Below are positions 31,597 to 57,905 of a DNA stretch of 64,000 bases, piece by piece; position 1 is the first letter of the stretch, and each line of letters starts with the position of its first letter. A program made the translations under genes and the position numbers. The notes beneath the pieces are model-generated. The model worked only from the letters and a program-made list of their open reading frames with translations, ran no database searches and had not been told where the DNA came from. Location: the NCBI GenBank assembly GCA_024281175.1, contig JAMJTW010000008.1, positions 159,309 through 223,308 of the forward strand. Direction: 5' to 3'. Source of the DNA: Candidatus Thiovulum imperiosus (lineage in GTDB: Bacteria > Campylobacterota > Campylobacteria > Campylobacterales > Thiovulaceae).

Positions 31597-32733
31597 TTGA
31601 AAATAGATAGTCTTATTTTTAGGGACAGTAGATGGAAAATAGAGAAAAACAGTATTTTAGAAAAAGAGAAAGCCTCTATAATTTTCTCATTTGGAACTGT
31701 ACAAGGTATTGAGAGTTGTGATTTCTCTGAATTGCAGAAGATGTATCCAAATGCTCATTTAGTTGGCGGAAGTACAGCTGGAACTATCTATAAAGATGAG
31801 ATATTTGAAGATAGTTTTGTTGTTGCATCTGTTCTTCAACTTGAGAAGAGTAGAGTCAAAATAGCTACTGAAGAGCTTTCAGATATGGAGAGTAGTTTTA
31901 AAATTGGAGAGAGGATATATAAAAATCTTGAAGATGATGAACTCCGTCATATCGTAGTTTTATCAGATACAATAAATATTAATGGTTCTCAATTTGTTTC
32001 TGGTTTAAATTCTGCTTCAGGTAGTAAAATACCAATTTCTGGAGGTATATTAGCTGAAGAGACTAAAGAGTTTCTACAAGCCTCTGTAATAGTAGATGAT
32101 AGTATTAAATCTTTTCGAGCTGTTGGAGTGGGATTTTATGGGGAGATAGATAGTTATTTTGGTTCAGACTCAGGTTGGGAAGATTTTGGAACTTATAGAA
32201 CTGTTACAAAATCTGATGGTAATGTAGTTTATGAAATTGATGAAAAACCAGCCCTCGATTTATATAAGAAATATCTTGGTGATTTAGCAAAAGATTTACC
32301 AGTTTCAGGATTGAGATTTCCTCTAAATGTTTTGGCAAAAGGAGAGAAGAGAGCAGTTATTCGAACTCTAAGTGCTATAAATGAAAAAGAGAAGAGTTTA
32401 ACTTTTGTTGGTGATGTTCCTCAAGACTCTAAAGCGAGACTTATGAAAACAAATATAGACGGTTTAATTGATGGTGCAGAGAGTGCTATTAAAATGACCA
32501 ATTTCATCTCACAAGATAGAGAAGCCTATTGTCTTGCTATAAGTTGTATAGGAAGAAGAGTAATTTTAGACCAACTTACAGAAGAGGAACTTACAACTAT
32601 TAAAGAGTATTTAGGAGAGAAGACAGAGATAACAGGTTTTTACTCTTATGGTGAAATAGCTCCATTTTCAGATAGTTTCCACTGCCATTTTCACAACCAA
32701 ACAATGACATTAACACTATTACAAGAGAGGTAA
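31597..32733 (+). CDS. FIST-domain signal-sensing protein
   Basis: TTG start; 378 aa. FIST_N/FIST_C-like pattern (GGSTAGTI..., FYSYGEIAP near the C-terminus). Stop lies 2 nt before the kinase gene. Confidence 0.7.
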   Translation: MKIDSLIFRDSRWKIEKNSILEKEKASIIFSFGTVQGIESCDFSELQKMYPNAHLVGGSTAGTIYKDEIFEDSFVVASVLQLEKSRVKIATEELSDMESSFKIGERIYKNLEDDELRHIVVLSDTININGSQFVSGLNSASGSKIPISGGILAEETKEFLQASVIVDDSIKSFRAVGVGFYGEIDSYFGSDSGWEDFGTYRTVTKSDGNVVYEIDEKPALDLYKKYLGDLAKDLPVSGLRFPLNVLAKGEKRAVIRTLSAINEKEKSLTFVGDVPQDSKARLMKTNIDGLIDGAESAIKMTNFISQDREAYCLAISCIGRRVILDQLTEEELTTIKEYLGEKTEITGFYSYGEIAPFSDSFHCHFHNQTMTLTLLQER

Positions 32734-32735
32734 AA

Positions 32736-34103
32736 TTGCACCGCCTTTTAAAAAGACAGATGAAAAAGATATTGGGAGTTTCAAATTTTGAAGAGCTTCC
32801 AGAAGATATTGCTAAATTTGCCAAAGCAATAGAGAATACTTATGAGAGTTTTGATATAGATAAGAAACTTCTTGAAAATACTATTATTATCAATACAGAA
32901 GAGTTAAATGAGCTGAATTTAAAAATTCAACTTGAAAATGAGTTAAGACTTAAGGGTCTTATTGAACAAGCACCTTACGGTTTTGTAATTGTAGATTATG
33001 ATGGTGAAGTTGTTGATGCAAATAAGTTTGCGTCAGATACACTTGGTTATGAGAAGAGAGATTTGGTCTCTTGTAAAATAGAGTCTCTTTTTAAATCGAG
33101 AGAGAATTTTGAATTTCAAGATTTAAGAGATAAGATAATGAGAGGCGAAAAGATATCTTTTGATGAGGTTATGAAAACATCTGTAAATAGTGATATTCCC
33201 GTAGAGATAACAGCTGGAAAATTTATAATTAAAGAGACACCTCACATTCTTATCATGTTTCAAGATATTATTGAGAGAGTTCAAGCTGAAAAGATGGCTC
33301 GTCAAAAACAGTTAGAGATAGAGAATTTAAATAAACAATTAGAAGAGAGAGTTCAGCAAGAGGTTATTAAAAACCTTGAGAAAGACCAACTTCTAATTCA
33401 GCAATCAAAAATGGCAGCAATTGGAGATATGATGGGAAATATTGCTCATCAGTGGAGACAGCCTTTAAACAATTTATCTATCGCTATTCAAGATGTTGAA
33501 GAGGCTTTTCTTTTTGATGAGTTGAATGGAAACTATATTGAAGAGTTTATTGAAAACTCTATGAGCAATGTCCGTTTTATGAGTAAAACAATAGATGACT
33601 TTAGAAACTTTTTTAAACCAACAAAATCTAAAGTGGAATTTAAGTTAAAAGAGGCTATTGAAGATATTTTGAAAATAGTTTCAGCTCAACTTAAAAATAA
33701 CAATATCTCAATCTCTATTGATGGTGAAAACTACTCAGTAATAGGCTATCCAAATGAGTTCAAGCAAGTAATTTTAAATCTCACAAACAATGCAAAAGAT
33801 GCAATTATTGAAAATAGAGTAGAGGGTGGGAAGATTGAGATAGCTATTTCAGATAGTGATGATGAGAAATATAAACTTATAACTATTCAAGATAATGGTG
33901 GTGGAATTCCAAAACATGTTATATCCAGAATTTTTGAACCGTACTTCACAACAAAAAAGGGAAATAAGGGAACTGGAATTGGTCTTTATATGTCAAAAAC
34001 AATTATTGAAGGAAATATGTCTGGAGAACTTCTTGTCAAGAATGAGAATGGTGGAGCAAAATTTTATCTTTCACTGCCTCATGTTGTAAAACTTAAAAAC
34101 TAA
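32736..34103 (+). CDS. PAS-domain sensor histidine kinase
   Basis: TTG start; PAS segment (IEQAPYGFVIVDYDGEVVDANKFA...), coiled linker, H-box IAHQWRQPL, ATPase boxes NLTNNAKDA, DNGGGIP, GTGIGLYMSK. Confidence 0.85.
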   Translation: MHRLLKRQMKKILGVSNFEELPEDIAKFAKAIENTYESFDIDKKLLENTIIINTEELNELNLKIQLENELRLKGLIEQAPYGFVIVDYDGEVVDANKFASDTLGYEKRDLVSCKIESLFKSRENFEFQDLRDKIMRGEKISFDEVMKTSVNSDIPVEITAGKFIIKETPHILIMFQDIIERVQAEKMARQKQLEIENLNKQLEERVQQEVIKNLEKDQLLIQQSKMAAIGDMMGNIAHQWRQPLNNLSIAIQDVEEAFLFDELNGNYIEEFIENSMSNVRFMSKTIDDFRNFFKPTKSKVEFKLKEAIEDILKIVSAQLKNNNISISIDGENYSVIGYPNEFKQVILNLTNNAKDAIIENRVEGGKIEIAISDSDDEKYKLITIQDNGGGIPKHVISRIFEPYFTTKKGNKGTGIGLYMSKTIIEGNMSGELLVKNENGGAKFYLSLPHVVKLKN

Positions 34104-34166
34104 ATATTTTTTCTCATATTATTCAAAAGTGGCAGTTATATAATTTTATAAAAACGAGTAGAAGAG

Positions 34167-34868
34167 TTGAAACTAATTCGTCAAATCAAAAAAGATATTA
34201 AATCTGTCATAGACAATGACCCAGCTATCCACTCAAAAGTTGAACTCTTCTTCAACTACCCAGGTTTCTGGGCTATTGTCAATTACAGAATTGCAAACAG
34301 AATTTATAAATCGGGATTTAAGAGAATTGGTAGAGCTATTATGGGAATTTCTCAAATGCTCACAAATATCGATATCCACCCTGGAGCAACAATTGGAGAC
34401 GGTATTTTCATTGACCACGGTTTTGGAGTTGTTATTGGAGAAACAGCAATTCTTGAAAACAATATTCTTATCTATCAAGGTGTTACTCTTGGAGGAGTTA
34501 GTTTAAATAAGGGAAAACGACACCCAACTATAAAAAGTGGAGTTGTAATTGGTGCTGGAGCTAAAATTCTTGGAGATATTACAATTGGAGAAAATAGTAA
34601 AGTTGGTGCAAATTCGGTCGTTGTAAAAGATGTCCCAAATAACTCTACTGCAATTGGAATTCCAGCAAGAGTCATCAATAGAGGAAGATGTGGAAATCCT
34701 CTATCTCACAACAAACTTCCAGATATAGATAAAGAACTATTTGAATATCTAATAAAGAGAGTTGCTGTTTTAGAGCATGTTCTTATGCAAGACAATAGAG
34801 ATATTGTTGAAAAAGATTTAGAATTAGATGCTATTTATGATACTTTCTTGAAAAGTGTTAAAACTTAA
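34167..34868 (+). CDS. cysE: Serine O-acetyltransferase
   Basis: TTG start; DPAIHSKVELFFNYPGF, hexapeptide repeats IHPGATIGDGIFIDHGFGVVIGETA. Confidence 0.9.
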   Translation: MKLIRQIKKDIKSVIDNDPAIHSKVELFFNYPGFWAIVNYRIANRIYKSGFKRIGRAIMGISQMLTNIDIHPGATIGDGIFIDHGFGVVIGETAILENNILIYQGVTLGGVSLNKGKRHPTIKSGVVIGAGAKILGDITIGENSKVGANSVVVKDVPNNSTAIGIPARVINRGRCGNPLSHNKLPDIDKELFEYLIKRVAVLEHVLMQDNRDIVEKDLELDAIYDTFLKSVKT

Positions 34869-34948
34869 AATATCTACTTTTTAAAACGATTTGTGAAAAT
34901 AGCAAGGAGTGTTCAAAATGAACGACTCTATTTTTACAAAGGTTAGTA

Positions 34949-37018
34949 ATGCAGTTTATATTTCTCTTTCTTCCAATTTTTCTCTATGGAGATATTGGAA
35001 CTCTCATCTCCAAAACAGTTTCTGATATTGGAGCAAAAACCATAGATGAAACTTCACTAGAGTATTCTGAAGCAAAAAAGATTTTTGATGAAACAAATTT
35101 AAAACTTGAAGAGCAAAAGAGTCGCTTTAAATCTCAAACTTTAAAACTCTCCATAGATGCTTCTTATCTTCATAGAACTCTATCTGAAAAAGAGAGAGAT
35201 ATAGAGTCTCTCTCTTCAACTCTAAATAGAAAACGGGCGAAACTTGAACAGATAGAAGCTGATATTAGAGCTGAGAAGAGTTATGTAAAAGAGTTGCAAA
35301 AACTTCTAAATCGGAAACTCTCTTTCAACTCAAATATCTCAACTCAAGGATATCTTTTCGCTTTTGTTGAAGATAAACGGTCAGTAAGTCGAGACATTTT
35401 TATAGATAGAGCAGTTCAAAGTATAAATCGAGAAGCGATTGAACAGCTTAATGGAATTTTCATAGAGTCAATTTCCAAATTCAATAAAACTCTTTCTCAA
35501 AGAGTTCGCGAAACCTCATCAGGAACAGCGATTTCTGATAGTTCTGAAACAACAATAAAACTCTTCTTTTCAAATAGTCGTAGCAACTCAGTAATGATTT
35601 ACGGAACAACTGTTGATGTCTACCCTTTTGAGAAAGGTGAAGTTATCTCCAGACATAAAAGAAAAAATTTTAAAGAGAGTTTTGTAACTCTAGTTCGAGA
35701 TGGTAGAGATATTCCACGAATTTTAAAAGAGATTTCAAAAAAATATCCAAAACTCGAGATTCCCACAGATTTAGAATCTAAACTAAAATCTGCTTTGGAT
35801 TCCATCTCAAAACATAACTCCAAAAGTGAAGATGCAATTCGAAATATCTCCTCTTCTCAAGATGAGTTTCAGAAAAAGATTCAAAATAGAATCTCTTCTC
35901 GAAAAGATGTTTTAATAGTTTTAGAGAGTCATCAGAAGTTGGCGAAAAGTGAAGTTGAGGATTTAGAGATAGATTTGAAAATTCTTCATAGTGAAAGAGA
36001 GAATCTCGAAAATGAATTTATCTCTCTTCAGAGAAAATTAGTAAAATTGAAACGAAGTATAACTTTTCAGAGAGCTGAAATGTATGATAGAAAGCATTCC
36101 AACGCAGTTGAAGAGACGAAGAGTATAGCAAAAGAACTTCTTTTAGATATAGACAAATCTCTTTTAAAAACTTCAAAAAGTATGGAGACAGTTTTCAATG
36201 GTTCAGAAATTTTGAAAGATGTTGTAAATGAAGTTGAGTATGAGAAGATATATGTTGGAGCTACGGTTACACCATATTTTGTAAGTGGAACAGACCGAAC
36301 AGGAGCTTTAGTCTCTTTGGAGATAGAGTTTCGAGACAAAAGGTTACCTGAGATTTCAGAACTTGAAGAGGAGCGATTTGTAAAAATTCCAAAAGGGAAG
36401 TTTCGTTTTGGTTCAAATTCTGGAGAGAGTGATGAGAAGCCAGAAATTGAAATTGAGATTTCAAAAGAGTTTTACATTGGAAAGTATGAAGTTACTCGAA
36501 AAGAGTATATGGAGTTTGCAAATGCTGTAAATGGACATTATCCAAAAAAGTATAGAGATGGTTGTATTGAAGATACATGTCCAATTGTTGGTATCTCTTG
36601 GATTGATGCTGTAGCTTATACAGAGTGGCTCTCTAAAAAGAGTGGTGAGAAATATCGACTTCCAACAGAAATTGAGTGGGAGTATGTAGCAAAAGGAGAT
36701 TTAAATTTAGATTTTGGTTTTCTTTATGGAAAATTATCAGACCACGCTTGGTATTTTGAAAATAGTATTGATGAGGTTCACGCTGTCGGTCTAAAAAAGC
36801 CTAATCTATTTGGAGCTTATGATATGAATGGAAATATTTGGGAGCTTTGTGGAGATAGTTATAACTACAATTTTCGAACAAAACGGTATAGCACTTATAA
36901 AGTTATGAGAGGTGGAGATTTCAAAAGTCGAAAGTTCTATGTTCGCTCTTCAAATCGTGCCAAATTTCGCCAAGATAGAAAAAGTCCATCTGTCGGTTTC
37001 CGACTTGTAAAAGAGTAG
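34949..37018 (+). CDS. Secreted coiled-coil protein with C-terminal FGE-sulfatase (SUMF1/EgtB/PvdO-type) domain
   Basis: Signal-like N-terminus, ~440 aa of heptad-rich sequence, then FVKIPKGKFRFGS...EKPEIEIEISKEFYIGKYEVT...GISWIDAVAYTEWLS...YRLPTEIEWEY...NGNIWELCGD...MRGGDF...VGFRLV. Confidence 0.75.
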   Translation: MQFIFLFLPIFLYGDIGTLISKTVSDIGAKTIDETSLEYSEAKKIFDETNLKLEEQKSRFKSQTLKLSIDASYLHRTLSEKERDIESLSSTLNRKRAKLEQIEADIRAEKSYVKELQKLLNRKLSFNSNISTQGYLFAFVEDKRSVSRDIFIDRAVQSINREAIEQLNGIFIESISKFNKTLSQRVRETSSGTAISDSSETTIKLFFSNSRSNSVMIYGTTVDVYPFEKGEVISRHKRKNFKESFVTLVRDGRDIPRILKEISKKYPKLEIPTDLESKLKSALDSISKHNSKSEDAIRNISSSQDEFQKKIQNRISSRKDVLIVLESHQKLAKSEVEDLEIDLKILHSERENLENEFISLQRKLVKLKRSITFQRAEMYDRKHSNAVEETKSIAKELLLDIDKSLLKTSKSMETVFNGSEILKDVVNEVEYEKIYVGATVTPYFVSGTDRTGALVSLEIEFRDKRLPEISELEEERFVKIPKGKFRFGSNSGESDEKPEIEIEISKEFYIGKYEVTRKEYMEFANAVNGHYPKKYRDGCIEDTCPIVGISWIDAVAYTEWLSKKSGEKYRLPTEIEWEYVAKGDLNLDFGFLYGKLSDHAWYFENSIDEVHAVGLKKPNLFGAYDMNGNIWELCGDSYNYNFRTKRYSTYKVMRGGDFKSRKFYVRSSNRAKFRQDRKSPSVGFRLVKE

Positions 37019-37020
37019 TT

Positions 37021-38826
37021 TTGTCAAATCTTTTAAATTTTCTTAGTGGAATTCACCCATTTGAACTACTTTCTGAAAGTGAGTTAGAAGAGACTCTTTC
37101 TCATATAGATATTGGATATTACAAAAGGGGAGAGACTCTAATCTCCATAGACTCCTCTCCAGAAAAACTCTATATGATTTTAAAAGGTAGAGTTCTTGAG
37201 TTTGAAGAAGAGAAAGTTGTCTCAATTTATAATGAACGCGAGAGTTTAGATGCCAAATCTATTTTAGATGGAGTCTCTAAAAACAGATTTGTAGTTGATG
37301 AAGAGTTGCTCTGTTATGAACTTTCAAAAGAGAAGTTTCTAAAACTTCTTCAAACACATCAAAGTTTTAAAAACTACTACATGGAGAGTTTTGTTAAAAA
37401 GATTGGTTCTATTAGAAAAGGTGGAGCATTATCTCTTTTTATGGTTGCAAAAGTCTCTAATATATTTCTCCACTCTGTAACTTTTGCAAAACCAGATGAG
37501 AGTTTGCAAAGTGCTGTAAAGCGAAAAGAGAGTGAAAAGTCGAGTGCCATTCTTGTTGAAGGTAGTGAAATCTCAATTGTTACGGATACAAACATTCGAA
37601 AGAGTCTAGTTTTAGAAGAGCAACCTCTTTCAACTCCAGTTGGAGAAATTGGAATTAAACCAGTTCAAACAATAGATTTTGAGGACTTTCTTTTTAATGC
37701 TTTACTTCTAATTACAAAACATCAAATAAAGAGATTAGTGGTTTTGAAAGAGGGTAAAATAGTTGGTATTTTAGAACAGATGGATATTTTAAGTTATTTC
37801 TCAAACCACTCTCATCTTGTTATGGTTGAGATTGAAAAGGCATCTTCAGTAGAAGAGCTTCTCTCAATTTCAAATCGTTTTATCTCTCTAATTAGAACCC
37901 TGCATGAGAAAGATGTCAAAGTTCGACATAGTGCAAAACTTATAAATGAACTCAATATCAAAATATATTTCAAACTTGCAAACCTCATCTTTCCAAAAGA
38001 GCTTCATTCTCAAATTTCACTCTTTGTTATGGGTAGTGAGGGGCGTAGAGAACAGATTTTAAAAACTGACCAAGATAATGGAATTATTTTAAAAAATAGT
38101 CTAATTCGAGATGAGGTTCTGAAATATGCAAAACTATTTAGTTCTAAACTTCTTGAAATGGGATATCCAGAGTGTGACGGAAATATCATGGTTTCAAATC
38201 CATATTGGGTAGATAGTTTAGAAAATTTTAAAATTAGAATTTTAGAGTTTTTCGAAAACCCAACTCCTCAAGCTCTACTTGAACTCTCTATCATTTTTGA
38301 TGGCGAAACAGTCTTTGGAGATGAGAAACCTCTTTTGGAATTGAAAGAGCATCTTTTAAATAAGTTGCAAGATTTCCAATTTGTTCGAGATTCTCTTGCA
38401 AAAGCCTCACTCTCTTTTGAAACTCCACTCTCATTTTTTAAAAATTTCATTCTCGACTCTAAACATGACAATGAACTTGATATAAAGAAAGGTGGAATAT
38501 TTCCAATTGTTCATGGTGTCCGAATTTTAGCTATGGAGAAGAGAATCTTTCAGACAAATACAGTTGAGAGAATTAAGGAGTTAAACAATTTAGAAGTTTT
38601 TAATAGAGAATTTGCTTCTGAATTGATGGAGGCTTTTGATACATTGCTAACTCTTAGACTTAAAGCTAGACTTCAGAAAATAGATGATGAAAAGGAGTTG
38701 GATAACTATTTAAATCCAAATGATATTTCATCTTTTGAAAGGGTTTTATTAAAAGATAGTTTTCGAATTGTAGAGAGATTTAAAAAATTTATCACACACC
38801 ACTTTTCACTTGATAGGATTAGCTGA
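37021..38826 (+). CDS. cNMP-binding / CBS-pair / DUF294 nucleotidyltransferase protein
   Basis: TTG start 2 nt after the upstream stop. N-terminal cNMP-binding-like fold (GETLISIDSSPEKLYMILKGRV), CBS region, pol-beta NTase motif GSEGRREQILKTDQDNG, DUF294_C-like tail. Confidence 0.8.
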   Translation: MSNLLNFLSGIHPFELLSESELEETLSHIDIGYYKRGETLISIDSSPEKLYMILKGRVLEFEEEKVVSIYNERESLDAKSILDGVSKNRFVVDEELLCYELSKEKFLKLLQTHQSFKNYYMESFVKKIGSIRKGGALSLFMVAKVSNIFLHSVTFAKPDESLQSAVKRKESEKSSAILVEGSEISIVTDTNIRKSLVLEEQPLSTPVGEIGIKPVQTIDFEDFLFNALLLITKHQIKRLVVLKEGKIVGILEQMDILSYFSNHSHLVMVEIEKASSVEELLSISNRFISLIRTLHEKDVKVRHSAKLINELNIKIYFKLANLIFPKELHSQISLFVMGSEGRREQILKTDQDNGIILKNSLIRDEVLKYAKLFSSKLLEMGYPECDGNIMVSNPYWVDSLENFKIRILEFFENPTPQALLELSIIFDGETVFGDEKPLLELKEHLLNKLQDFQFVRDSLAKASLSFETPLSFFKNFILDSKHDNELDIKKGGIFPIVHGVRILAMEKRIFQTNTVERIKELNNLEVFNREFASELMEAFDTLLTLRLKARLQKIDDEKELDNYLNPNDISSFERVLLKDSFRIVERFKKFITHHFSLDRIS

Positions 38827-39419
38827 TGTTTCACAGCTTTTTCAAAAAATGGCAAAAGAAGAGATTAAAAGATGAGAAATATCTCTTTCTCTTTGAAGAG
38901 TGTTGTGATGATGAGGTAGTTGTTTTTGATACAGAGACAAGTGGTTTAAATCCAGAAATAGACCAGATAGTTTCAATAGGTGCTGTCAAAATAAAGGGAA
39001 ACAGAATTCTCCTTAGTGAAAAATTTCATATCTATATCAAAGGAAATTTGAAAGAAGAGGCGATAAAAATTCACCAAATTCGAAAACATGATTTACAAAA
39101 TGGAGAGAGTATTGAAAATGGAATTGAACAGTTTCTAAATTTTATAGGTTCTCGACCAGTTGTTGGATACTATCTCCAGTTTGATGTAGCCATGATAAAT
39201 AGAGAAGTTCGTCCAAAACTTGGAGTTGGACTTCCAAATAAAAAAATAGAAGTCTCAGAACTCTATTTTGACAAAATGCAGAAAAAGTTTCCTCATGGAA
39301 ATATAGATTTGAAATTTGACACAATTCTTAAAGAGTTACAAATTCCAACTTTAGGAAAACATGACGCTCTAAATGATGCCATCATGACAGCTATGATATA
39401 TCTAAAACTTAAGAAGTGA
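38826..39419 (+). CDS. DEDDh 3'-5' exonuclease (DnaQ/epsilon-like)
   Basis: Exo I VVFDTETSGL, Exo II region YYLQFDVAM, Exo III HDALNDA. TGATG overlap with the upstream gene. Confidence 0.8.
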   Translation: MFHSFFKKWQKKRLKDEKYLFLFEECCDDEVVVFDTETSGLNPEIDQIVSIGAVKIKGNRILLSEKFHIYIKGNLKEEAIKIHQIRKHDLQNGESIENGIEQFLNFIGSRPVVGYYLQFDVAMINREVRPKLGVGLPNKKIEVSELYFDKMQKKFPHGNIDLKFDTILKELQIPTLGKHDALNDAIMTAMIYLKLKK

Positions 39420-39783
39420 CTATTACTCCAATACACTCTTTTTTTAGTAATTCTAAATTTTCATCTTTTTGAAACTCTTTCCAGAATGGGAAAGTTCTGC
39501 ACTGTTGAGGTCGAACTGGATAGATGGAACATTTTCCATTTTCTAAGAAAACACAGAGATATTTACCACCAATTTTCAATTCTTTAATTGAGTAGCGATA
39601 TCCCTCTTTTCTTGTATATATCTCTAAGAACTCTTTTTCAGAGATGGAGAGAAATTTTGAAATCTCTCTCTGCTCCTCTTTTGAAAAGAAGATATTTCCA
39701 CTATCTCCTGAACAGCATTGTGCTTCACAACTGTTACAAGCCAGTGGGTCAAATTGGAACTTATATCCCTCTTCTCTTATCAA
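39409..39783 (-). CDS. YkgJ-family cysteine-cluster protein
   Basis: CNSCEAQCCSG and downstream C..C pattern typical of UPF0153/YkgJ. Confidence 0.7.
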   Translation of the reverse strand: MIREEGYKFQFDPLACNSCEAQCCSGDSGNIFFSKEEQREISKFLSISEKEFLEIYTRKEGYRYSIKELKIGGKYLCVFLENGKCSIYPVRPQQCRTFPFWKEFQKDENLELLKKECIGVIVTS

Positions 39784-40019
39784 ATCTCTATGCTGTAATC
39801 TTCAATTACGGTATTTGCAAGAAGTTCTTCACACATCTTTGTAGCCTCTTCTCTTGCTTCACTTTCTGATGAGGTGTTCAGTTGCATAACTATCTGTCTA
39901 CCAATTCTCACATCTTGGACAGATTTCTCAAATCCCAAAGAGTCAAGAGCGTGATGTACTGCTTTTCCTTGAGAGTCTAAAACTCCCTCTTTCAAAAAGA
40001 TATTTATAACTACTCTCAT
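39780..40019 (-). CDS. purS: Phosphoribosylformylglycinamidine synthase subunit PurS
   Basis: 79 aa; LKEGVLDSQGKAV motif; follows purC with a 1-nt overlap. Confidence 0.85.
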   Translation of the reverse strand: MRVVINIFLKEGVLDSQGKAVHHALDSLGFEKSVQDVRIGRQIVMQLNTSSESEAREEATKMCEELLANTVIEDYSIEI

Positions 40020-40729
40020 TATCCTAAAATCCTATTTCTAACTTCTTCGTAAGCTACTTTAATTCCACCAATACCGTGTCGAAATCTATCTTTATCCAAC
40101 TTCTCTCCACTATTTATGTCCCAAAAACGACAACTATCTGGAGAAACCTCATCAGCTAAAAGAATTTTTCCATCTCTGTCTCTACCAAACTCAAGTTTGA
40201 AATCGATAAGTCGAAGATTTTTCTCTTTGAAGAAAGGAAGTAGAATTTCATTCACTTTTCTTGCTTTAGCTTTTAGAACTTCTAACTCTTCTGAAGATGC
40301 TAATTCCATCATAGTAGCGTGGTCATCAGTAATGATTGGGTCTCCCAAATCATCATCTTTATAGTAGAATTCAACCAAAATTGGAGAGAGCACTTTTCCA
40401 TCTTCAATTCCCAATCTTTTTACAAGAGAACCTGTTGCCACATTTCTTACAACAACTTCAATTGGAATGATTTCAACTCTCTCAACCAACATCTCTATTT
40501 CAGAGAGATTTTCCACAAAATGTGTTTCAATTCCATTCTCTTCTAGCTTCTTGAAAATGATAGTGCTTATCTCATTATTTAAAGCACCTTTTCCAGTTTC
40601 ACTCGACTTCTTCTGAGCATTGAATGCTGTTAAATCATCTTTAAATTCAGCTATGATTTTTGACTCATCTCCAGCAACAGCGAAAAGTTTTTTTGCTTTT
40701 CCTTCGTAAAGTAGTTCCGATTTTTCCAT
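40019..40729 (-). CDS. purC: SAICAR synthetase
   Basis: [11 protein letters not shown]-terminus, [24 protein letters not shown]. Confidence 0.95.
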
Positions 40730-54971: not shown

Positions 54972-55360
54972 ATGAAGAAATTAGTTCTATTTTTTACCCT
55001 CACGCTCTCTCTTTTTGGAATTGAGAATAGTTTTATCGACTCACTACCAAAACTCCAATAAAAGAGGAACTTGAGGGGATAACTGGGTTGAATTGTGCAA
55101 TAAAAAGTATTTCAAATATTTCTGGAATAGGAAATCTTTCTAATTTGACTTACCTCTATTTGCATAACAATTCGATTTCAGAGATAGGTAGTGAAATAGG
55201 AAATCTTTCTGATTTGCAATACCTCTCTTTGCATAAAAACAACATAACAGAAATTCCATCAGCTCTAAATTCGCTTTCAAACTTGAGTAAGCATTTAAAT
55301 CTACTACAATTACCAAATCCTCTTCTGAAACCGTTGTTGAGTTCCTTGAAAGAGTTTTAG
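54972..55360 (+). pseudogene. Frameshifted small secreted leucine-rich-repeat protein
   Basis: ATG 54972 gives the signal peptide MKKLVLFFTLTLSLFG..., which stops at 55059. A different frame, open from 55031, continues as ...EELEGITGLNCAIKSISNISGIGNLSNLTYLYLHNNSISEIGSEIGNLSDLQYLSLHKNNITEIP (LxxLxLxxNxI repeats). Confidence 0.5.
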
Positions 55361-55951: not shown

Positions 55952-56013
55952 GTAAATAAAAATAAAATATGGTAAAATTCTTTTTGGAAATTTTACTTCC
56001 ATTTTGAATTTGT

Positions 56014-56113
56014 CTTGATAAGGCTTTACCAAGTGCCTTTTTGCAAACTTAAGGCTTCCTTCGGGAAGTCTTATCAAGGTGAATTCGGAGAGTTTGCAAA
56101 TAAAACTTGGTAA
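56014..56113 (+). ncRNA. Candidate structured leader/ncRNA upstream of antirepressor cassette 1
   Basis: Nested stems: TTACCAAGT (56026-34) / ACTTGGTAA (56105-13); TTTGCAAACT (56040-49) / AGTTTGCAAA (56091-100); and a 10-bp hairpin at 56050-73 capped by C(UUCG)G. Upstream CTTGATAAGGCTT (56014-26) can alternatively pair with AAGTCTTATCAAG (56066-78). A paralogous copy with compensatory changes lies at 57022..57119. Confidence 0.55.
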
Positions 56114-56173
56114 CTTTATTTTCAGCTCTCTAAAAAAGAGGATTTCCACCAAATTTATTTTTACCGTATTTAA

Positions 56174-56974
56174 ATGAAAGAACTTATCAAAGTTTCTCAA
56201 AACAGAATAGGAGACGACGAAGTAAATTCCGTTTCTGCTAGAGAATTGCATAAAGCATTAGAGTCTAAAGACGAATTTGCACACTGGAGCAAAGCTCAAA
56301 TTAAAAGAGCTGGACTAGAAGAAAACATCGATTTTATCAAGGTTTGGAGCGATGGGGAAAAACCCATCGCTAAATTTATCCTAGAAAAAGAACTTTTAAA
56401 AAAGTTTAAGTCTGTACAACAAGCGACAGCCTCTGGTTGGCAATCTGATTACATCTTAACTATTGAAAGTGCAAAACATATTGCTATGATGTCAGGAACA
56501 CAAAAAGGAAAAGAGGTCCGAAACTATTTCATTGAGATTGAAAAGAAGTTTTGGCAAGTTTCCGAAACAAAAGTTTCTTCTTTAAAAGATTTAGATAGAG
56601 CAAAAATGAAAGAGTTGAAGTTACAAGTTCAAGATTTACAAGAACTTTCAAAACCAGTTTTAGAGTTTTCAAAAACTCTTCAAACTGAAAATCCATACAC
56701 CCTTACAGTTCTTGAAAAGATTACAAAAGAGAATTTAGGTTTTTCACTTTTTGAAACTTTTCAAATTGACTTTTCAGAAACTCTGTTTCTACCAACTGAG
56801 CTTGGAAAATTTATTGGAGTTTCAGGAGCTGAAATGAATAGGAAATTGAAAGAGAGAGGTTTTCAAATTCGAGATGGAAAAAATTGGAAACTTACAGAAA
56901 AAGGAAAAAAGTTTGGAAATGATGTTTCCGAAGATTTTCCGCAACTCAAATGGAAAATTGATGTTCTTTTGTAA
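56174..56974 (+). CDS. Phage antirepressor (AntA N-domain + KilAC/ANT C-domain), copy 1
   Basis: VNSVSARELHKAL...F..W; DYILTIESAKHIAMMSGTQKGKEVRNYFIEIEKKF (AntA-like); C-terminal LPTELGKFIGVSGAEMNRKLKERGF (KilAC-like). Confidence 0.8.
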   Translation: MKELIKVSQNRIGDDEVNSVSARELHKALESKDEFAHWSKAQIKRAGLEENIDFIKVWSDGEKPIAKFILEKELLKKFKSVQQATASGWQSDYILTIESAKHIAMMSGTQKGKEVRNYFIEIEKKFWQVSETKVSSLKDLDRAKMKELKLQVQDLQELSKPVLEFSKTLQTENPYTLTVLEKITKENLGFSLFETFQIDFSETLFLPTELGKFIGVSGAEMNRKLKERGFQIRDGKNWKLTEKGKKFGNDVSEDFPQLKWKIDVLL

Positions 56975-57021
56975 ATGTGATAAAATCCTTTTTAGAAATT
57001 TTACTTCCATTTTGAATTTGT

Positions 57022-57119
57022 CTTGATAAGGCTTTACCAGTGCCTACAACATGAACGAGGCTTTCTTCGGAAAGTCTTATCAAGGTGAATTCGGAGAGTT
57101 CATGTTGTGAAACTGGTAA
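57022..57119 (+). ncRNA. Candidate structured leader/ncRNA upstream of antirepressor cassette 2
   Basis: Same scaffold as 56014..56113: TTACCAGT (57034-41) / ACTGGTAA (57112-19); ACAACATGAAC (57046-56) / GTTCATGTTGT (57098-108); hairpin 57057-78 with C(UUCG)G; alternative pairing CTTGATAAGGCTTT (57022-35) / AAAGTCTTATCAAG (57071-84). Confidence 0.55.
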
Positions 57120-57179
57120 CTTTGCACATTTACTCTCTCAAAAGAGGATTTCCACCAAATTTATTTTTACCATATTTAA

Positions 57180-57905
57180 ATGAAAGAACTATTAAAAGTT
57201 TCTCAAAAGAGAATAGGAGATGAGTCTGTAAACTCTGTTTCTGCTAGAGAATTGCATGTAGTGTTAGGGGTGAGCAAAGATTTTTCAAGCTGGATAAAAG
57301 CACAATTGAACAGGGGTTTTTTTGTAGAAAATATTGATTACATCGTTGTTCCAATTGGCAAAAGTTTGCACCCCCAAAAAGGTGAGCAAAGAGGTGGTCA
57401 TAATAAAATAGACTATATTCTTACTCTTGAAACAGCTAAACATATTGCAATGATGTCTGGAACTCAAAAAGGAAAAGATATTCGAGATTATTTCATTGAG
57501 ATTGAAAAGAAGTTTTGGCAAATTTCTGAAACAAATGTTTCTTTAAAAGATTTAGATTTACAAAGTGTTGAGACAGACTTAGAAACTGTGAGTAGAATTC
57601 TAAAGATTTTTCAAGAACACAACTCTTTAGAAAAAACGCAATTGGATAACTTCATAAATGCTAAATTTGGCGTTTCACTTCTCCAGAGTTTTAAAATCTC
57701 TTTTCAAAACACTCTTTTTCTACCAACCGAACTTGGAAAATTTATTGGAGTTTCAGGAGCTGAAATGAATAGGAAACTGAAAGAGAAAGGTTTTCAAATT
57801 CGAGATGGCAAACATTGGAAATTGACAGAAAAAGGCGTAGAGTTTGGAAATGATGTTTCCGAAGAATTTCCACAACTCAAATGGAAAATTGATGTTCTTT
57901 TGTAG
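57180..57905 (+). CDS. Phage antirepressor (AntA + KilAC), copy 2
   Basis: Paralog of 56174..56974. The N-terminal ~25 aa, the DYILTLETAKHIAMMSGTQKGK block and the C-terminal ~60 aa are near-identical. The middle is divergent. Confidence 0.8.
   Translation: MKELLKVSQKRIGDESVNSVSARELHVVLGVSKDFSSWIKAQLNRGFFVENIDYIVVPIGKSLHPQKGEQRGGHNKIDYILTLETAKHIAMMSGTQKGKDIRDYFIEIEKKFWQISETNVSLKDLDLQSVETDLETVSRILKIFQEHNSLEKTQLDNFINAKFGVSLLQSFKISFQNTLFLPTELGKFIGVSGAEMNRKLKEKGFQIRDGKHWKLTEKGVEFGNDVSEEFPQLKWKIDVLL

Follow-up and report, generated by a model that had tools for sequence, protein, structure and literature searches.

We analysed a stretch of 64,000 nucleotides from Candidatus Thiovulum imperiosus (contig JAMJTW010000008.1, positions 159,309 to 223,308), hereafter the window, in which coordinates are counted from the first letter. 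The study concerns three consecutive open reading frames (ORFs) on its plus strand: gene 1 (34949..37018, 689 aa, ATG start), encoding a putatively secreted protein with an FGE-sulfatase fold, gene 2 (37021..38826, 601 aa, TTG start), encoding a presumably sensor-regulated nucleotidyltransferase (NTase) made of a cyclic-nucleotide-binding-like (CNB-like) domain, a CBS pair, a DUF294 NTase domain and DUF294_C, and gene 3 (38826..39419, 197 aa, ATG start), encoding a DEDDh 3'-5' exonuclease of the NF006601 family. The results make it quite probable that genes 2 and 3 are a conserved operon of the type of PP_0354/PP_0353 of Pseudomonas, and that gene 1 codes for an unrelated secreted protein adjacent to them only in this species. 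Gene 1 stands outside the conserved pair: it is an incidental neighbour, and its adjacency is a species-specific accident. The pair is a known unit of the MxtR/ErdR type of short-chain carboxylate regulon whose mechanism is unsolved, a widespread known unknown of the acetate, pyruvate and propionate regulon in Pseudomonas and many other bacteria. What is new for it here is a predicted fold resembling that of DrrA and GlnE, a cyclic-nucleotide domain apparently devoid of the canonical contacts, and a detachment from actP and acs in one lineage of Campylobacterota.

A preliminary description of this DNA had suggested that the pair and the FGE protein belong together, had noted a resemblance to signalling-nuclease logic without claiming proof of it, and had set the linkage of the three genes across relatives beforehand as the finding on which the proposal depends. 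The full-length family of protein 1 comprises 17 clusters (47-100% identity), and we inspected six independent orthologues (47-64% identity) with up to 8 kb of flank each. No DUF294 or RNase_T gene was found near any of the six within these flanks, and their contexts were mutually unlike. The gene lay in the order yajC-secD-secF-FGE-thyX in orthologues P0016 (47% identity) and P0015 (50%), adjoined nusA in P0013 (54%), was placed 3' of moaA in P0010 (54%) and 3' of folE in P0004 (59%), and was isolated in P0002 (64%). The arrangement seen in the window recurred only on contigs with an identical protein 1.

The same picture was obtained from the side of gene 2. Its three closest DUF294 relatives (63, 62 and 53% identity) had the exonuclease immediately downstream in 3/3 cases, and 5' of the DUF294 gene were found a glycosyltransferase, an ExbBD cluster and a divergent EamA gene, and no FGE gene. 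In the nearest relative, the FGE orthologue (P0002, 64%) and the DUF294 homologue (P0021, 62%) lay on different contigs of the same JGI sample, with GC contents of 36.9 vs 36.8% and a tetranucleotide correlation r = 0.988 (0.44-0.93 for other positive pairings). The shared sample, GC content and tetranucleotide match imply that this relative holds both genes in one genome, unlinked. A broader reference set of 80 loci was collected with the DUF294 profile from GTDB representatives; it spans Campylobacterota, Gamma- and Alphaproteobacteria, and its closest member is 46% identical to the window protein. An FGE domain was detected by tblastn at 1 of the 80 loci, in Thiomargarita, at a distance of 2.5 kb on the other strand and with similarity limited to the domain. 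The FGE gene was thus unlinked in every relative examined, and the proposal of a three-gene unit fails for want of conserved linkage, as does the signalling-nuclease reading. The trio is unimportant as a three-gene system, its linkage being an accident of a compact genome in one species.

The tight spacing of the genes had been taken as a sign of a unit. The ORFs and junctions themselves read exactly as first described: gene 1 and gene 2 are joined by TAG-tt-TTG, a 2-nt gap, and gene 2 and gene 3 by TGATG, in which the start of the exonuclease overlaps the NTase stop by 1 nt. Among the 39 co-directional neighbour pairs in the window, though, 54% are spaced by 5 nt or less and 44% overlap, and the unrelated genes trpC and lptF/G are likewise 2 nt apart. 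The coding share of the window is about 93%, at an even GC content of about 33%. Gaps of 5 nt or less being the default in this genome, the tight junctions of the trio are uninformative. A promoter and terminator scan gave no terminator-like site between the three genes, and promoter-like matches near the number expected from shuffled sequence; an Rfam scan of 33500-40500 gave no family, riboswitch or leader, with a single sub-threshold chance match. The promoter and terminator counts carry no information either way. The three genes may be co-transcribed in this compact genome and yet constitute no functional system.

These data bear directly on the idea of a conflict or defence system, in which a secreted FGE-fold sensor of a ligand or invader would signal to a nucleotide-sensing NTase and a nuclease effector. 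Apart from the co-directional arrangement with its 2-nt gap and 1-nt overlap, such an idea draws on the conflict-system literature, where the FGE/FGS domain is indeed described as a binder or effector, as the preliminary description had stated, and where FGS domains act as binders (PMC7159879). It also draws on P0018, a fusion of FGE-sulfatase and TIR_2 whose FGE domain is 37% identical to that of the window, and on the TPR-headed P0145 (L096 1-9885), distantly related to protein 1 in the N-terminal module. Next to P0145 are encoded an FHA-kinase, a kinase-WD40 protein of 1451 aa and a TIR_2-domain protein, a neighbourhood with the look of a conflict system. The trio linkage is nevertheless missing from 6/6 FGE orthologue contexts, 3/3 closest DUF294 contexts and 79/80 reference loci. 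The compartments also differ, as protein 1 has a signal sequence and the NTase and exonuclease have none, and no transmembrane transducer is encoded between them. PADLOC returned nothing for the NTase and, for the exonuclease, a generic DEDDh domain model only; the neighbourhood is made of housekeeping genes, and the spacing carries no information. FGS domains of conflict systems are cytoplasmic, often hypervariable and tied to diversity-generating retroelements (DGRs) or vWA-MoxR systems (PMC7159879), whereas the FGE domain of protein 1 is conserved (62% mean identity, and 58% over its C-terminal 50 aa, the equivalent of the variable region). With the FGS-domain conflict systems (vWA-MoxR-, iSTAND- or DGR-linked) and with CBASS-like defence, the trio has nothing in common except the domain types, namely FGE/FGS, nucleotidyltransferase and nuclease. 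We consider a defence function of the trio highly improbable; the failure to find the linkage conserved already goes most of the way to refuting it. A DGR origin of variation, considered for the TvpA-like FGE domain, was rejected: there was no hypervariability, and no template repeat of the domain DNA was present in the window.

We now turn to the conserved pair. Of the 76 reference loci that could be assessed, 65 had an exonuclease gene directly downstream of the DUF294 gene and in the same orientation (tblastn; the four remaining loci end at the NTase gene). The neighbours in the 80 loci were clustered and the cluster representatives annotated. An SSF/ActP symporter was the most frequent, at 56 of the 80 loci and directly upstream at 47, followed by DUF485 (yjcH, 33 loci), a Cache histidine kinase (28), a regulator (26) and Acs (22). 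The canonical order of the locus is Cache histidine kinase, OmpR-type regulator, OprD porin, DUF485 (yjcH), SSF symporter (actP), DUF294, exonuclease and acetyl-CoA synthetase. Depositor annotations of P. aeruginosa and Methylocella tundrae give the corresponding succession of DUF485, cation/acetate symporter, cNMP/CBS/NTase protein and 3'-5' exonuclease. The P. aeruginosa protein encoded beside actP aligns with protein 2 over residues 1-598 (31.1% identity, 100% coverage, E 2e-88, tblastn). At two loci, L077 and L078 (Halarcobacter and Campylobacteraceae metagenome-assembled genomes), the order ActP, NTase, exonuclease, DUF485, ActP, NTase was observed, a tandem duplicate of the whole module.

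The pair has a described counterpart in PP_0354/PP_0353 of P. putida/alloputida KT2440. This operon is targeted by the MxtR/ErdR (CrbS/CrbR) acetate two-component system and corresponds to Pflu5625 in P. fluorescens and to WP_003091544.1/WP_003091543.1 in P. aeruginosa. The window pair shares with it the four-domain NTase, an NF006601-type exonuclease immediately downstream and an overlapping junction. Unlike the usual Pseudomonas-type locus, it does not lie beside actP, yjcH or acs. This adjacency is frequent and not universal, the P. putida pair being found near glcB instead. In the three closest DUF294 relatives as well, actP is not beside the pair, so that the pair is detached from actP/acs in this organism and in its closest relatives.

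Published genetics concur with the genomic partners. In P. fluorescens, pflu5625 is discussed within the CrbS/R acetate regulon, and its mutant had no phenotype (PMC5715377). In P. putida, the promoter of pp_0354 is a binding site of ErdR, and the operon also includes the exonuclease gene pp_0353; both genes are dispensable on acetate and succinate, and pp_0353 matters on pyruvate (PMC9927547). Loss of either gene of the pair lowers growth on propionate, and cNMP and energy sensing plus protein modification was proposed by the authors of that work (bioRxiv 10.64898/2026.09.07.749794). In Bacilli, a DUF294-dnaQ operon has likewise been reported (PMC3412718). A metabolic or acetate linkage, which the preliminary description had named as the other finding that would speak against its proposal, is thereby substantially borne out, through the conserved partners yjcH, actP and acs and through the published genetics of the MxtR/ErdR regulon. 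Its account of the DUF294/exonuclease duo as widely conserved is correct; experiments had already placed the duo in the short-chain carboxylate regulon.

The domain assignments of the preliminary description (FGE in protein 1, cNMP/CBS/DUF294 in protein 2, DEDDh exonuclease in protein 3) were upheld by Pfam and NCBIfam, all Pfam matches of protein 2 exceeding the gathering cut-offs. The CNB-like domain covers aa 33-113 (37117..37359; PF00027, E 1.7e-7). It is followed by the CBS pair region at aa ~143-261 (37447..37803), where PF00571 matches aa 207-261, PDB CBS-pair proteins align over ~143-263, and the AlphaFold2 (AF2) model agrees. The catalytic half (37879..38805) consists, according to Pfam, of the pol-beta NTase domain DUF294 at aa 287-417 and the helical DUF294_C at aa 458-595. 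Protein 2 has more than 4,000 homologous clusters, the nearest named homologues being from Sulfuricurvum and Nitrosophilus. The GS...DxD pol-beta motif claimed for the NTase, G338-S339...D350-x-D352, proved invariant in 69 homologous sequences. Matters stand otherwise for nucleotide sensing, which had been ascribed to the NTase and is not established, the canonical cyclic-nucleotide contacts being missing. The phosphate-binding cassette of the PKG CNB domain, F-G-E...R-S-A, aligns to F-D-A followed by variable residues across the DUF294 family, in which F-D-A is nearly invariant. This degenerate cassette makes canonical binding of cAMP or cGMP doubtful, and suggests for the CNB-like domain a ligand other than cAMP or cGMP.

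Protein 3 matched RNase_T in Pfam and the NCBIfam equivalog NF006601, with 274.6 bits against a cut-off of 189. Alignment to the PolC exonuclease domain showed that the DEDDh residues D35, E37, D120, H179 and D184 are all present, and protein 3 is therefore predicted to be a catalytically intact exonuclease. Neither the NTase nor the exonuclease has a signal sequence.

By sequence, no PDB chain matched aa 270-601 of protein 2 (phmmer), and a search of the PDB with the whole DUF294 profile was dominated by CNB and CBS chains. No match to the GlnE/GlnD family was obtained at this level, Pfam assigning DUF294 and DUF294_C only. The AF2 model of protein 2 (pLDDT 86.6) was more informative. Its best Foldseek match was Legionella DrrA in complex with Rab8a (6yx5_B, E 4.1e-9, target TM 0.66), followed by the E. 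coli GlnE adenylylation and deadenylylation domains (3k7d, 1.9e-7, and 1v4a, 1.5e-6); the remaining top matches were CNB or CBS domains. Pfam clan assignment also groups DUF294_C with the C-terminal domains of GlnD and GlnE (PMC3710099). The catalytic half is thus predicted by modelling to have the fold of the protein AMPylases GlnE and DrrA. Like GlnE and the Legionella AMPylase DrrA/SidM, it has the pol-beta G-S...D-x-D motif and then a helical domain of the KNTase_C clan. It differs from them in its regulatory modules: where they have tandem NTase domains or a GEF domain, it is joined to a CNB-like domain and a CBS pair. Its partner is different too, a DEDDh exonuclease in place of a second, NTase-type removal domain.

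From this model we infer that the NTase most likely transfers a nucleoside monophosphate (NMP) to a protein side chain under the control of the CNB-like domain and the CBS pair, and that its target is probably part of the machinery that takes up or activates carboxylates. In the mechanism that we propose, the sensor domains would read an adenylate or metabolite signal; the cytoplasmic NTase, so gated, would covalently NMP-ylate a protein target tied to short-chain carboxylate uptake or activation; and the translationally coupled DEDDh partner would hydrolyse a phosphodiester of the same cycle. A bolder version, to which we give a small chance, is that the "exonuclease" is in vivo no nucleic-acid enzyme at all and acts as an eraser, a DnaQ-fold phosphodiesterase removing AMP or UMP from a protein such as ActP, YjcH or Acs. 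The DrrA/GlnE-like fold, the intact DEDDh site, the tight coupling and the conserved actP/acs synteny are compatible with an eraser; they neither show nor exclude it. If it existed, it would represent a new writer/eraser chemistry by which protein nucleotidylylation is made reversible, with the CNB-like domain and the CBS pair as its gate.

Two other activities were considered for the pair. It could act on RNA, the NTase adding non-templated 3' nucleotides to one specific RNA, be it an mRNA of the carboxylate regulon, a tRNA or a small RNA, and the exonuclease trimming them, which would amount to a post-transcriptional control. Enzymes that tail RNA are known among pol-beta superfamily NTases, the DEDDh/RNase T-type partner is apparently catalytically intact and almost always co-encoded, and nuclease-mediated control of mRNA was raised as a possibility by the authors of the P. 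putida study (PMC9927547). Yet it is two protein AMPylases, DrrA and GlnE, that the catalytic half resembles most in structure, and the top 50 Foldseek matches listed include neither a CCA-adding enzyme nor a poly(A) polymerase or CD-NTase. DUF294_C, moreover, groups with the C-terminal domains of GlnD and GlnE, and Pfam detected no RNA-binding domain. On balance, we hold an action on RNA to be unlikely, at odds of perhaps one in several. Alternatively, the pair could make and degrade a nucleotide second messenger, a linear or cyclic oligonucleotide formed by the NTase on binding of a metabolite and turned over by the exonuclease, as Orn-type DEDDh enzymes do with pGpG. The composition of a sensor-NTase plus a DEDDh enzyme is superficially compatible with such a cycle; yet there was no likeness to CD-NTase or GGDEF proteins among those top 50 matches, no match to a PADLOC or CBASS model, and no effector with a messenger-binding domain conserved nearby at the 80 loci. 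This makes a second-messenger role very unlikely.

Several points weigh against the reading that we prefer, a regulon-associated pair working by protein NMP-ylation and a gene 1 foreign to it. No biochemical assay of any member of the DUF294 NTase family was found in the literature searched, and, with an exonuclease as partner, a nucleic acid would be a more natural substrate than a protein. The phenotypes of the Pseudomonas mutants are only moderate, and none was seen on acetate. In the 64-kb window, tblastn gave no match to ActP, DUF485 or Acs, so that the acetate link is drawn here by homology only. Regarding gene 1, its co-transcription with the pair is even likely from the 2-nt gap, and it could conceivably have been functionally recruited to the pair in this lineage. 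The confidence of the protein 1 model, finally, is only moderate (see below).

Protein 1 was described initially as an exported protein. A hydrophobic, Sec-type signal was found at the N-terminus in 16/16 orthologues, which makes export a reasonable prediction. Its FGE-sulfatase-fold domain occupies aa 475-688 (36371..37012; PF03781, E 2.6e-39), with C539 and C544 invariant. Compared with solved relatives, this domain came closest to PvdO (7.9e-29), Treponema TvpA (2.7e-22) and PorK/GldK (~5e-19), true FGEs scoring 1e-17 or weaker; the C-terminal segment searched alone matched only TvpA, PvdO and PorK, and none of the FGEs. In FGEs, the catalytic Cys pair lies in a C-terminal RGG...C-x4-C segment (C336/C341 in the human enzyme). 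There is no Cys in the last 55 residues of protein 1, nor in those of any orthologue (0/16). Neither the surroundings of gene 1 in the window nor the six orthologue contexts contained a sulfatase gene. The Cys-free C-terminus, PvdO, TvpA and PorK as nearest relatives, and the lack of a sulfatase together indicate a binding or structural member of the fold, rather than an FGE. On this evidence, the domain appears non-catalytic, a conclusion drawn from the absence of the known Cys motif in a Cys-free segment, and not from a residue-level alignment to FGEs. Protein 1 thus resembles PvdO, PorK/GldK and TvpA in its presumed extracytoplasmic location, its FGE-sulfatase fold and its Cys-free C-terminal segment. 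It differs from them in that the fold is preceded by a stalk/globular module of ~470 aa. No pyoverdine, type IX secretion system or DGR genes were found near gene 1.

The region upstream of the FGE domain had been presented as some 440 aa of coiled coil, which is overstated. The AF2 model, built from a 16-sequence alignment (mean pLDDT 65.8), contains two long helices totalling ~175 aa, at aa 39-120 (35063..35308, pLDDT ~85-95) and aa 275-369 (35771..36055, pLDDT ~80-95), both delimited by DSSP. Each is followed by a conserved block. Block A, globular (aa 125-232, 35321..35644), carries the motifs NISTQGY, SSGTA and IYGTxVDVYPFE, with a mean column identity of 72%, and was modelled poorly. Block B, beta/alpha (aa 370-465, 36056..36343), carries the motifs RAEMYDRKHSNAV, IPYFV and TGALVxLE, with 74% identity, and its strands and helix were modelled confidently. 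The best-conserved parts of protein 1 are these blocks outside the coiled coil (aa 125-232 and 373-465, 72-74% mean column identity, compared with 40-54% in the helical parts). When the model was searched with Foldseek, PvdO was the sole significant match. The others (SMC, Lamassu, chemoreceptors, Tc toxins) were discarded as coiled-coil noise, and a marginal PADLOC match of protein 1 to LmuB (E 6e-4) was read in the same way.

The N-terminal 470 aa (34949-36358) were rare: an exhaustive phmmer search of 1.84 billion proteins gave 12 representative clusters. Distant relatives of this module (20-28% identity) retain the motifs QGY, SSGxA, IYGTxVDVYPFE, RAEM, IPYF and TGAxVxL, and end in different C-terminal heads. 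These were TPR repeats after a hydrophobic, TM-like segment in P0145, P0150 and P0151, an Ivy lysozyme-inhibitor domain in P0147, and no recognisable domain in P0146. In our reading, the module is a rare stalk or scaffold outside the cytoplasm on which one binding domain can take the place of another, and a new family of envelope "presenter" proteins could be based on it. Gene 1 would then encode a stalk-plus-globular module that displays, at the cell surface or in the periplasm, a binding domain of the FGE fold without catalytic function. As an example of this very rare module and its exchangeable heads, gene 1 is a minor curiosity.

Some features of the loci collected were recorded in passing. 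The thyX gene downstream of orthologue P0015 (L003 10212-12458) is split by an intein, the succession of domains being Thy1, Intein_splicing, Thy1, and its equivalent in L001 is intein-free. An unannotated gene encoding 544 aa (L005 10212-11846) abuts orthologue P0013. Another 544-aa protein, encoded on the minus strand of L094 (13475-15109), combines a weak ZorA-like_t1 match with FGE-sulfatase and lies 4.6 kb from a DUF294-exonuclease pair.

In the window, the neighbours of the trio are housekeeping genes. Upstream, on the same strand, are found an lptA-like gene, ispG, and genes for a FIST protein, a PAS histidine kinase and a hexapeptide acyltransferase; downstream, and convergent, are a gene for a CxxCxxCC protein, purS/purC, lptF/G and trpC, and then lysS. 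The genes for the FIST-domain protein and the PAS histidine kinase (31597-34103) are 2 nt apart, with no adjoining response regulator, and are possibly a sensor pair. Further away, at 55965-57904, a tandem duplication with a period of ~1 kb, made up of four repeat families (78-94% identity), points to two paralogous genes side by side. Close to it, at 55123-55254, direct repeats of 69 nt (78% identity) were noticed, which, judged by eye from the sequence, we take to resemble leucine-rich-repeat coding units.

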